From NCBI GenBank assembly GCA_025544715.1, contig GCA_025544715.1_4109.4: 34,224 bases of DNA. The stretch is one strand, 5' to 3'. The notes below the pieces were generated by a model that saw only the letters and a list, made by a program, of their open reading frames with translations, was not told the DNA's origin and did not search any database. The DNA comes from Escherichia coli. GTDB taxonomy: Bacteria; Pseudomonadota; Gammaproteobacteria; Enterobacterales; Enterobacteriaceae. Positions 7,717 to 8,975 of the stretch are shown one piece after another. A program made the position numbers and the translations under genes. How positions within the stretch are numbered: position 1 is the stretch's first letter; the number at the start of each line of letters is the position of its first letter.

Positions 7717-7722
7717 CATAAT

Positions 7723-7747
7723 GCCAGTACAGAGTACTGGCTTTCTT
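7723..7747 (+). terminator. intrinsic terminator (GCCAGTAC-aga-GTACTGGC plus T-tract)
   Basis: Perfect 8-bp stem, 3-nt loop, followed by TTTCTTATTT; just after the stop at 7714-7716. Confidence 0.65.
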
Positions 7748-7787
7748 ATTTGTATTAAATATAGTATAATGAATAAAGGAGGAATTT
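7748..7787 (+). promoter_or_regulatory. conserved 5' cassette (TATAAT -10-like element, SD AAAGGAGG)
   Basis: TTGTATTAAATATAGTATAATGAATAAAGGAGG repeated almost identically upstream of four other family genes; -35 poorly matched. Confidence 0.4.
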
Positions 7788-8975
7788 ATGTTACCTTTTG
7801 CAAGAATGATGAATTATGGGAATATTGTCCCAGTACCACTTCAAATTAAGAAAATAATCCCAACTGATTTAGATGTTGTGGTTCTGTATACGGATGGTCA
7901 ACTATATGCACGTGGGAATAATAGTTTTGGGAAATTCGGTAGAGGAAACAACACTGCATTAAAATCATGGACATTAATTAGAGAAAACGTTAACGATTGC
8001 TGGATTACACAAGGAACTTTATTAGTAAAAGACAATGACTCAAATTATTTTTATTGTGGATATGGTTCTCATATTGGTTTACCAACAAGTACTACTACGT
8101 TTTTAAGTTATAACCAATATATTGAAAATTTGTACACACAAAGTTCAAGTACTTCAATTAAACAGATGTATGCAGGTACTACGTGGTTTACTTGCTTAAT
8201 GGACAATAATACAATATGGAGTACAGGGTGGAACAGTGCTAGACAATTCGCCGATGGAACGGGAACTACTTATGAAATAACCGATGGTTCATTTGTAAAA
8301 GCGGTCACACCTAATGTTGATATTGCACAAATACAGTCAACAAATAACTGTGTATTGTTGTTTGATAAACAAAATAATTTATATATTGGTGGTGTTACAT
8401 CCGGTATAAGTTCTGCGACTACATGGACTTCATATAATGAATATACTTTATATCAACCAAGTACAACATACACAAAAACGTTACAATACACAGGATGCTC
8501 AACTGGTGCAGTAAGTGCTTTAGTTGAAAATCCAAATACAGGAGCACGTCAGTTCCTTGTCGGTGGGTTAGCTAATAATGGGGCATGGGGAAATAACACT
8601 ACATCTAGCTCTGTTAATGGAGTTTTAGGAAATAACAGTACTACGTTACCACCCGGTACTTTGTATTCAATTCATACTGGATACCCACCACAATCTAGTA
8701 TACTAATTACGAGTACTGGTGTATATGCAACTGGTTTAAATGCCAGTAGTTATGCTGGTTCATTGGGTATTGGTACTAGTGCAACTGTTGGTAAGTTTAC
8801 TGCATGTCCAATGCCTACACAAATAACATATTCTATGTATGATAAAATAAAAATATATAGAGGTTCATATCGTACATTTCTAACTGATATGAAAAATATA
8901 TATTCAACCGGAACTTATGATGATGGTGGTCCTAGTACAACTAGATATGTACTGGATACACCTAGACAATTGTAA
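7788..8975 (+). CDS. leader-tagged RCC1-like beta-propeller protein, 395 aa
   Basis: N-term MLPFARMMNYGN; motifs GKFGRGNN, GSLGIGT. Confidence 0.8.
   Translation: MLPFARMMNYGNIVPVPLQIKKIIPTDLDVVVLYTDGQLYARGNNSFGKFGRGNNTALKSWTLIRENVNDCWITQGTLLVKDNDSNYFYCGYGSHIGLPTSTTTFLSYNQYIENLYTQSSSTSIKQMYAGTTWFTCLMDNNTIWSTGWNSARQFADGTGTTYEITDGSFVKAVTPNVDIAQIQSTNNCVLLFDKQNNLYIGGVTSGISSATTWTSYNEYTLYQPSTTYTKTLQYTGCSTGAVSALVENPNTGARQFLVGGLANNGAWGNNTTSSSVNGVLGNNSTTLPPGTLYSIHTGYPPQSSILITSTGVYATGLNASSYAGSLGIGTSATVGKFTACPMPTQITYSMYDKIKIYRGSYRTFLTDMKNIYSTGTYDDGGPSTTRYVLDTPRQL

Follow-up and report, generated by a model that had tools for sequence, protein, structure and literature searches.

What is the sequence unit that recurs nearly unchanged at successive gene junctions of a 34,224-nucleotide (nt) contig in an Escherichia coli assembly (GCA_025544715.1_4109.4; the whole stretch is called the window here), and what does it do for the genes that it separates? 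The window is DNA of an Asteriusvirus-type jumbo coliphage of the PBECO4/121Q group. By megablast, all matches to positions 5300 to 14800 are to jumbo coliphages or Salmonella phages in the genus Asteriusvirus (PBECO4, 121Q, G17, phAPEC6, and others), with a best identity of 98.7% and at most 49% of the query covered by any single record. The units lie in a plus-strand island (5396 to 14704) between minus-strand genes, consisting of eight genes whose products all start with MLPFxRMxxYGN; six are intact RCC1-like genes, one is a glycine-rich gene without an RCC1 domain (9048 to 9785), and the last is an RCC1-like gene present as two open reading frames (ORFs). The array proteins are 17 to 33% identical in pairwise comparisons. 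We consider it probable that the unit has two roles, delimiting insulated late transcription units and providing portable homology through which whole genes are exchanged.

From the stop codon to 36 nt beyond the next ATG the unit measures about 107 to 110 nt, of which 71 to 75 nt are intergenic and at least 36 nt are coding. Five junctions share a hairpin with arms GCCAGTAC and GTACTGGC and a T-tract, the 15-mer TAAATATAGTATAAT (TAAATATAATAACGA in the last copy) with TAAATA starting 31 to 34 nt ahead of each ATG, and a Shine-Dalgarno (SD) sequence 6 to 8 nt before the ATG (Table 1). The original prediction had described a cassette of about 85 bp at five junctions, combining a terminator, a promoter, an SD sequence, and a leader. 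All five copies are where it placed them and have this composite makeup, with hairpin and T-tract, TAAATA, GGAGG, and conserved start; the alignment of copies that it proposed gives 78 to 85% identity over the whole unit for the four close copies. The unit is longer than had been thought, and a sixth copy had been missed at 5362 to 5440, ahead of the first gene, which has the promoter, SD, and start and is without a hairpin because no gene lies upstream on that strand. Genes 6607 and 11024, originally listed as lacking the unit, have junctions of 8 and 9 nt and are probably co-transcribed with their upstream neighbors, as had been proposed, but the conserved coding start ATGTTACCTTTTGGAAGAATG is present in both, as it is in all eight genes. 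Recent tandem duplication can be set aside as the origin of the repeat: the gene bodies between units are 52 to 57% identical in nucleotides (54%), at the shuffled baseline of 52%, while the units are far closer to one another, so that the repeat is not the remnant of a recent gene duplication.

The most constant element of the putative promoter is TAAATA. All 83 standard cassettes, drawn from 12 genomes, carry it unchanged, as do two diverged cassette subtypes, and its distance to the ATG is constant, unlike that of TATAAT, which is perfect in 71 of the 83 standard cassettes, varies to TATAAC and TATAAA, and has an offset from TAAATA that differs between subtypes. The whole phAPEC6 genome (352.6 kb), for which a virion proteome is published (PMC7247149), served as the reference for late promoters. 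A sense TAAATA lies 20 to 70 nt upstream of the ATG in 29 of its 54 non-array virion-protein genes, compared with 1 of 54 for an antisense control and about 1 expected by chance; the motif has 230 sites on both strands of that genome. The window contains 19 TAAATA sites versus 86 ± 9 in shuffles, a depletion of about 4.5-fold, and six of the ten plus-strand sites are the six cassettes. Non-array late promoters of phAPEC6 have the same layout (e.g., GCTAAATAAAGTATAATG for gp274c and CATAAATATTTCTATAAT for gp231c), and phAPEC6 gp237c, the product of a gene found in this relative and lying outside the window, matches PHROG 234, late sigma transcription factor (E = 8e-18). CBB and GAP32 have ATAAATA ahead of structural genes as well as a gp55-like sigma (PMC5259590), and mass spectrometry of phAPEC6 virions identified eight of the array proteins (PMC7247149 Table 1). 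Because TAAATA is invariant, enriched before virion-protein genes, and depleted elsewhere, and a late sigma is encoded by a relative, we infer that the cassette promoter is probably a T4-type late promoter with TAAATA rather than TATAAT as its core.

T4 late promoters have the sequence TATAAATA and depend on gp55, gp33, and gp45 (Geiduschek and Kassavetis 2010). The cassettes share with them, and with the ATAAATA motifs of CBB and GAP32, what looks like an AT-rich motif at -10 only and no -35 element, a position upstream of virion-protein genes, a gp55-like sigma encoded by relatives, and avoidance of the motif elsewhere in the genome; in CBB, no gp33 or gp45 homologues were found (PMC5259590). 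Several features weigh against the assignment. The cassette 8-mer reads ATTAAATA, with two mismatches to the T4 sequence, and TAAATA is preceded by T (or C or G) where 20 of the 29 other late promoters have A, so that the cassettes score 6.0 to 7.5 on a late-promoter matrix with a training range of 3.8 to 16.2 and a median of 12.5. TAAATA is also unusually near the ATG, the distance being 35 to 56 nt for most other late genes, and the 15-mer is conserved beyond the needs of a late promoter (it is identical in 66 of 83 copies and recurs in another genus), which suggests that it may be read by something else as well or that the promoter may be dual.

The original prediction had emphasized a clean TATAAT with a poor -35, and a promoter of another kind than the consensus promoters on the minus strand. 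The difference in kind stands, but the defining element is most likely TAAATA. Were TATAAT the working element, the promoter would be of the sigma-70 family with a -10 hexamer only, read by host sigma-70 or a phage RpoD-like sigma, perhaps with an activator, and expression of the array would fall in the early or middle period of infection. The many perfect TATAAT copies, the TATAAT-like hexamers in the diverged subtypes, the RpoD-like sigma gp066c of phAPEC6, and the conservation of the 15-mer past TAAATA and across genera, which would also suit a dual promoter, are all consistent with this. We nonetheless think it unlikely: the cassettes have 2/6 matches to a -35 at 17-nt spacing and no TG extension, none passes a sigma-70 scan, and all near-consensus sigma-70 promoters of the window are on the minus strand. 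Moreover, TATAAT is the element that tolerates substitution and shifts in offset while TAAATA and its spacing stay constant, and the products are virion proteins.

Upstream of the predicted late promoter, the hairpins of the five full cassettes lie 5 to 8 nt after the preceding stop codon, have folding energies of -11.4 to -16.9 kcal/mol (z of -3.1 to -7.0), and are followed by 5 to 7 U residues in the next 8 to 10 nt. All five are among the 13 sites of a terminator scan of 4800 to 15500 (4.3 ± 2.0 in shuffles), and the same hairpins are called terminators by ARNold in the G17 record. The arrangement is that of an intrinsic terminator, a stable G+C-containing stem-loop and a U-tract right after the stop codon, with an interrupted U-run. 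With these interruptions (UUUCUUAUUU), termination may be partial. The stem is nearly unvarying within Asteriusvirus except for G-U changes, and two of four hairpins in the Salmonella phage SE_PL have double changes in the outer stem (GCTAGTAC/GTACTAGC and GACAGTAC/GTACTGTC), which represent few independent events. No known RNA family accounts for the hairpin or the unit, as Rfam 15 gave no match at gathering score in the whole window.

The hairpin could instead be mainly a stabilizer or processing site of the mRNA 3' end, or a DNA site bound by a protein and containing the palindrome AGTACT. Such a role would be compatible with the interrupted U-tracts, with a core AGTAC...GTACT that is invariant even where the outer stem covaries, and with the excess of AGTACT in the window (122 copies versus 11.4 ± 3.6 in dinucleotide shuffles). 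The position just after the stop codon, the stem strength, the T-tract, the apparently compensatory changes of the outer stem, and the ARNold calls all fit an intrinsic terminator, however, and TAAATA promoters outside the array show no enrichment of AGTAC nearby, such that we regard a mainly nonterminating hairpin as improbable. A link between AGTAC and late promoters in general found no support, with 25 of 207 sites outside the array compared with 14% at random positions. We note that AGTACT is roughly tenfold overrepresented, with one site every ~280 bp of the window, and that an excess of a palindromic hexamer is unusual in phages; the phAPEC6 genome has 918 copies where about 101 are expected. 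The sites are evenly spread over early and late regions, and the palindrome is present in the cassette stems.

Downstream of the SD sequence, what had been called a leader is indeed conserved, but it is coding, and it specifies an N-terminal peptide that is under protein-level selection and is also found on nonhomologous proteins. All 123 array genes from 11 genomes start M-L-P-F-x-R-M/I-x-x-Y-G/A-N, often followed by (I-A)-P-x-P. Conserved residues vary synonymously (Tyr10, TAC 66 and TAT 30; Gly11, GGG 63 and GGA 23; Pro15 and Pro17, CCT and CCA in about equal shares; CTA and CCC for Leu2 and Pro3 in the last array gene), which shows selection on the peptide. Versions of it occur in other genera, as MIPFxR/KIxxYGN in SE_PL, MLPF in Cronobacter phage GAP32, and MFPIPIISxYGN in Xanthomonas phage XaC1. 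It precedes three unrelated C-terminal domains, namely RCC1-like propellers, Gly_rich_2 (9048 in the window and SE_PL_424), and a ConA-like Laminin_G_3 domain (SE_PL_435), this last assignment being weak for GAP32_002 and its homologue SE_PL_429. BLAST similarity between domain classes is limited to residues 1 to 17, and Gly_rich_2 proteins from other sources start with MLELL or MIELL. In AlphaFold models, the propeller encoded at 7788 to 8975 (predicted template modeling score, 0.78, from a shallow alignment) has residues 1 to 13 at low confidence, and the glycine-rich protein (predicted local distance difference test, 92) has residues 1 to 10 at low confidence, the first strand beginning at residue 20 in both. 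Mass spectrometry has shown GAP32_001 to be a virion protein (PMC5259590), and GAP32_002 carries the annotation of a virion structural protein.

The most economical reading of these patterns is that the tag is a short docking peptide that would mount different binding domains on the virion. Two cautions apply: the propeller model was built on only six sequences, and CBB has whiskers but no RCC1 homologue (PMC5259590), so that the array proteins are not simply the "hairs." The glycine-rich protein has no sequence homology to solved structures at E <= 0.01, and its best structural match, to a cyanophage Pam3 fiber by Foldseek (E = 1e-3; template modeling score, 0.30), is a weak lead without sequence support. 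It is also conceivable, if doubtful, that the first ~36 nt of the genes act as RNA or DNA, as an initiation enhancer, as a repressor or small-RNA target, or as additional homology, and that the peptide has no function. Codons 2 to 7 are almost without synonymous variation in Asteriusvirus (TTA 97/104, CCT 97/104, TTT 103/104, and AGA 101/104), and an identical initiation region on 8 to 14 genes would permit coordinate control. These invariant codons, however, are also the preferred AT-rich ones, and the amino acids persist where the nucleotides change, at the synonymous positions listed above, in the ATA-coded Ile of SE_PL, and in the diverged MFPIP of XaC1, which keeps YGN; the same peptide on three unrelated domain types in three genera is a further argument against this reading.

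The second role of the unit, as a patch of homology, is indicated by comparison of the arrays. The original prediction had proposed that the repeats are substrates for recombination and that gene content and order should be compared among relatives. When the array genes of eleven genomes are grouped at >= 75% protein identity, every array differs from all the others in its genes and their order, and cassettes lie at the edges of most gains and losses. With a slash for a cassette junction and a full stop for a short junction, the window reads C.A/B/D/U.H/K/F, PBECO4 reads C.A/I/G/B/(fragment)..E/H/K/F, CRJP21 reads C.A/I/B/..E/H/K/F, and SP27 reads X/C.A/I/G/B/D/E/L/J.O/M/P, where I is a 379-amino-acid (aa) gene. 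No phage record covers 80% of the window array, and the arrangement is therefore absent from all 50,697 phage records; among these, gene U (9857 to 11014) has its sole close homologue in TH47 (89.6% aa identity), the next being 45.7% identical in UB.

The breakpoints coincide with the units. Local blastn of the window against ten arrays places 46 of 51 internal block ends within the eight junction units, although these cover only 9% of the interval. The 5' edge of a cassette is where blocks start (7702 to 7720, 8978, 12202, and 13476 to 13487), or else the SD of a short junction (6597 and 11001), and they end about 36 nt into the next gene (7824 to 7833, 9083, and 9892), with adjacent blocks overlapping by one unit. 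The junction at 7717 to 7787 is chimeric: its first 52 nt are those of the SP27 junction downstream of gene A (369 aa), and from the 3' arm of the hairpin past the ATG it corresponds to the PBECO4 junction upstream of gene B (396 aa). The crossover interval is the shared 36 nt GTACTGGCTTTCTTATTTGTATTAAATATAGTATAA, and homologues of PBECO4 gp288 and gp289 are precisely removed. Across genomes, intact cassettes link gene A to six different genes downstream, the bases after the stop codon move with the upstream gene, and the SD spacer and tag codons move with the downstream gene. Hairpin-loop, T-tract, and SD variants occur in patchwork combinations among the cassettes. The proposal that the repeats serve recombination is thus borne out by arrays that differ in every relative examined, by blocks that end at units, and by the chimera. 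We note, separately, that the window and TH47 copies of gene U are unlike in their first 14 residues, a sign that exchange may have taken place within the tag region.

One apparent case has to be discounted. The T/N/T/N pattern of phAPEC6 might be taken for unequal crossing-over, but the record (MK817115.1, declared circular) begins and ends with the same 2,421 nt at 100% identity, 350178 to 352598 with 3 to 2423, which is probably an assembly overlap that makes two array genes appear twice; per-genome cassette counts for phAPEC6 thus include about two duplicates. That the units are conserved solely by functional constraint, with the array differences arising from gene loss, illegitimate recombination, or exchange within gene bodies, is the least probable of the alternatives considered here, since the conservation of promoter core and tag across genera, which does point to purifying selection, the few breakpoints elsewhere (13942, 14011, and 14414), and the short junctions, which show that rearrangement can remove hairpin and promoter, would leave unexplained the concentration of block ends in so little sequence, the overlap of adjacent blocks by exactly a unit length, the precise chimera with its single intact cassette, and the six different partners of one upstream gene.

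A mechanism can be proposed on this basis. The 8-bp hairpin and U-rich tract would terminate or attenuate the mRNA of the upstream gene. About 14 nt further on, TAAATA in TAAATATAGTATAAT would be read by host RNA polymerase carrying a phage gp55-like late sigma, with transcription starting a few bases downstream to give a leader of ~20 nt and then the strong SD AAGGAGG. The ATG and the following 12 to 17 codons encode the family-wide peptide MLPF-x-R-M-x-x-Y-G-N-(I-A)-P-x-P, which may dock ligand-binding domains of unrelated types on the virion, namely RCC1-like propellers, glycine-rich domains, and a ConA-like lectin, the last in related genera. Crossovers within the unit, inside one genome or between coinfecting relatives, would delete, insert, replace, or reorder whole genes, while terminator, late promoter, SD, and tag would all be retained in each recombinant. 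With units of ~110 nt arranged head to tail every ~0.8 to 1.3 kb and T4-like recombination enzymes at hand (phAPEC6 annotations include UvsX, UvsW, gp46/47-like, and EndoVII homologues), crossovers would be expected to shuffle whole genes.

More tentatively, and as a possibility that we do not favor strongly, the unit might be a "plug-and-display" recombination linker, in which a single ~110-nt repeat provides late expression, insulation, and a virion-docking tag of 12 to 17 residues. If so, any ligand-binding domain entering the array would automatically be made late and mounted on the particle, and Rak2-like jumbo phages would hold an exchangeable adhesin bank, with an integron-like logic operating through general homologous recombination. 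A docking role for the tag would also show what the "RCC1-like DNA condensation proteins" are used for, a name that looks wrong given their lectin-like and fiber-like companions, and would make available a short handle, transferable to foreign domains, for their display on particles of jumbo phages. Shuffling through the units also accounts for the array being the most variable block among Asteriusvirus genomes that are otherwise 97 to 99% identical, which matters for predicting the host range of therapy phages.

The closest precedent is the promoter-early stem-loop (PeSL) cassette of T4-like phages (Arbiol et al. 2010, PMC2839356; Comeau et al. 2014, PMC4122927). Both are stop-to-ATG composites of stem-loop terminator, promoter, and SD, conserved over ~100 bp, and both are multicopy in a hyperplastic (variable) region, where they are tied to insertion, deletion, and replacement of the flanked genes among close relatives; in both, deletion leaves a single chimeric unit, and the transcriptional insulation of each cargo gene by PeSLs is predicted for the cassettes here too. 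A further feature of PeSLs is that cargo forms minicircles by exchange between flanking units. The differences are nonetheless several. The predicted promoter here is of the late TAAATA type, whereas that of PeSLs is early, strong, and sigma-70-like, with both -35 and -10 boxes; the homology runs ~36 to 50 nt into coding sequence as a conserved N-terminal peptide; the cargo consists of 0.7- to 1.2-kb virion-protein genes of a few domain families rather than small ORFans; and the carrier is a Rak2-like jumbo phage, not a T4-like phage. Because its promoter is not a sigma-70 early promoter, its homology enters coding sequence, and its cargo is large late virion-protein genes, the unit works like a PeSL but is not one in the defined sense. 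If the reading holds, it would extend the PeSL idea from early ORFan regions to late virion-protein genes, from T4-like to jumbo phages, and across the start codon into the tag.

The window also has repeated early cassettes on its minus strand (~19034 to 19070, 20824 to 20860, 22106 to 22142, 27015 to 27051, 28089 to 28126, 29435 to 29468, 29618 to 29651, and 32861 to 32897). These read AAAAGGGTTGACTTCGGTCAGCCCTTTTTGCTATAAT, with a GGG...CCC stem-loop AAAGGTTGACTTCGGTCAGCCTTT over a consensus -35 (TTGACT) and TATAAT 17 to 18 nt downstream, and all sigma-70 matches of >= 11/12 in 15000 to 34224 are on the minus strand. From their sequence they look like textbook PeSL-like units, of a subclass with the stem-loop over the -35. 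PeSL-like early units and late cassettes in one window suggest that the phage applies the same design to both temporal classes.

Two other systems share parts of the arrangement. The morons of lambdoid phages are reportedly promoter-gene-terminator units, and like them each cargo gene here would have its own promoter and terminator, so that addition or removal leaves the neighbors undisturbed. Moron flanks are not known to be conserved between copies, however, or to mediate movement, whereas the flanks here are nearly identical and crossovers map to them. Modular tail fibers and tailspikes are said to combine a conserved N-terminal attachment part with exchangeable distal domains; the array proteins likewise have a conserved N-terminus on different C-terminal binding domains, and recombination there swaps the variable part. 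They differ in that the conserved part is only 12 to 17 residues and is fused to regulatory signals in one repeat, and in that its attachment to the virion is so far putative.

The unit is widespread in the group and confined to array genes. A 108-nt query finds 335 places in 39 phage records, all under array genes and with 4 to 14 per genome; the window itself has six copies within 8.2 kb. Across the complete genome of phAPEC6, neither the MLPFxR start nor the exact promoter core occurs outside the array, and the SE_PL array has cassettes with the same hairpin core and AATTAAATATAGTATAAT. Metagenomes add nothing, as an exact scan of IMG/VR for the 22-mer TTAAATATAGTATAATGAATAA returned two contigs only. 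Public records mark parts of the unit, as ARNold terminators in G17 and as "repeat_region" in UE-S1; papers on PA5oct, fEgEco12, UE-S1, phAPEC6, and CBB and reviews of jumbo phages contain no description of the cassette or of the N-terminal motif, and one may exist elsewhere.

Table 1. Units, junctions, and genes of the plus-strand array and a related hairpin beyond it (positions in the window; aa, amino acids; SD, Shine-Dalgarno sequence)
Feature	Position	Strand	Details
Partial cassette before first array gene	5362..5395	+	GGTAAATATGATATAAC; TAAATA 5364-5369; SD AAGGAGG 5384-5390; no hairpin
RCC1-like gene, 400 aa	5396..6598	+	Start MLPFGRMIKYAN; stop codon inside SD of next gene
Short junction, 8 nt	6599..6606	+	No terminator or promoter
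RCC1-like gene, 369 aa	6607..7716	+	Start MLPFGRIIRYGN
Cassette 1	7717..7787	+	Hairpin GCCAGTAC-AGA-GTACTGGC 7723-7741; T-tract 7742-7751; TAAATATAGTATAAT 7756-7770 (TAAATA starts 7756); SD AAGGAGG 7776-7782
Coding part of repeat, first 17 codons	7788..7838	+	MLPFARMMNYGNIVPVP; belongs to 395-aa RCC1-like gene 7788-8975
Cassette 2	8976..9047	+	Hairpin 8983-9001 (loop TCT); TAAATA 9017-9022; SD 9036-9042
Glycine-rich non-RCC1 gene, 245 aa	9048..9785	+	Start MLPFGRMVKYGN; Gly_rich_2 / PHROG 4474 family
Cassette 3	9786..9856	+	Hairpin 9793-9815 (extended stem 9791-9817, -16.9 kcal/mol); TAAATA 9826-9831; SD 9845-9851
RCC1-like gene, 385 aa	9857..11014	+	Rare cargo
Short junction, 9 nt	11015..11023	+	Homology with PBECO4 and CRJP21 resumes at 11001
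RCC1-like gene, 391 aa	11024..12199	+	Start MLPFVRMFDYGN
Cassette 4	12200..12274	+	Hairpin 12211-12229 (one G-U pair); TAAATA 12243-12248; SD 12263-12269
RCC1-like gene, 401 aa	12275..13480	+	Start MLPFPRMIKYAN
Cassette 5, diverged subtype	13481..13551	+	Hairpin GCCAGTAT-TTT-GTACTGGC 13487-13505; CCTAAATATAATAACG (TAAATA 13518-13523); SD GGAGG 13542-13546
Last array gene, two ORFs	13552..14704	+	13552-13776, 74 aa, MLPFGRIITSSK; 13808-14704, 298 aa
Related hairpin	15360..15383		ATCCAGTACT-TAAT-AGTACTGGAT, -14.2 kcal/mol; scored as plus-strand terminator

Several features at the edges of the array deserve mention. The divergent intergenic region that holds the partial cassette also contains a minus-strand sigma-70 promoter with a 12/12 match (5346->5318). 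The 3' end of the first array gene (about 6568 to 6606) reads TAATGCCAACGCAGTTATGGCAACAATAGGAGGG, in which a hairpin remnant GCCA...TGGC is followed directly by an SD; it resembles a cassette minus its T-tract and promoter, such that the short junctions may be collapsed cassettes. In SD-15_S21 (L015), a 97-aa ORF at 14321 to 14614 starts with the tag and has a second in-frame tag 35 codons on, which looks like the scar of a cassette deletion. The diverged cassette subtype is always found ahead of the last array gene in relatives. The two ORFs of this last gene are in different frames, and the split is likewise annotated in 121Q (genes 235/234), UB, CRJP21, and ELP-22, with the 74-aa ORF also present in PBECO4; being common to relatives, it is a conserved interruption (a lineage-kept pseudogene, two real genes, or recoding) and not a private sequencing error. 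The related hairpin of Table 1 lies ~650 nt past the array end, between minus-strand ORFs at 14685 to 15347 and 15389 to 15760.

Isolated TAAATA sites resembling late promoters are also present on the minus strand, within the early-strand block, at 29434 and 30084 (and at 28098). The first two precede the genes at 28135 to 29412 and 29658 to 30041, homologues of the phAPEC6 virion proteins gp035c and gp037c, and the site at 29434 reads CTATAAATATAGACA, near the cassette sequence.

The window contains further repeats. Degenerate repeats with an 8-bp period (TCTAGCCG / TCCAGACG / TTTAGCCG and others) occupy 402 to 545. On the minus strand, 1598 to 5294 codes for ~15 small ORFs (59 to 81 aa) with common start regions (reverse complement, ATGCATAAAGAATACTAC...), a second paralogue array on the early strand, the copy number of which varies among relatives too. 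A small paralogue set at 16808 to 18169, also on the minus strand, has four tandem ORFs of 112 to 115 aa with a 120-nt repeat at 341-nt spacing, and its CRJP21 homologues are mislabeled "regulator of chromosome condensation."

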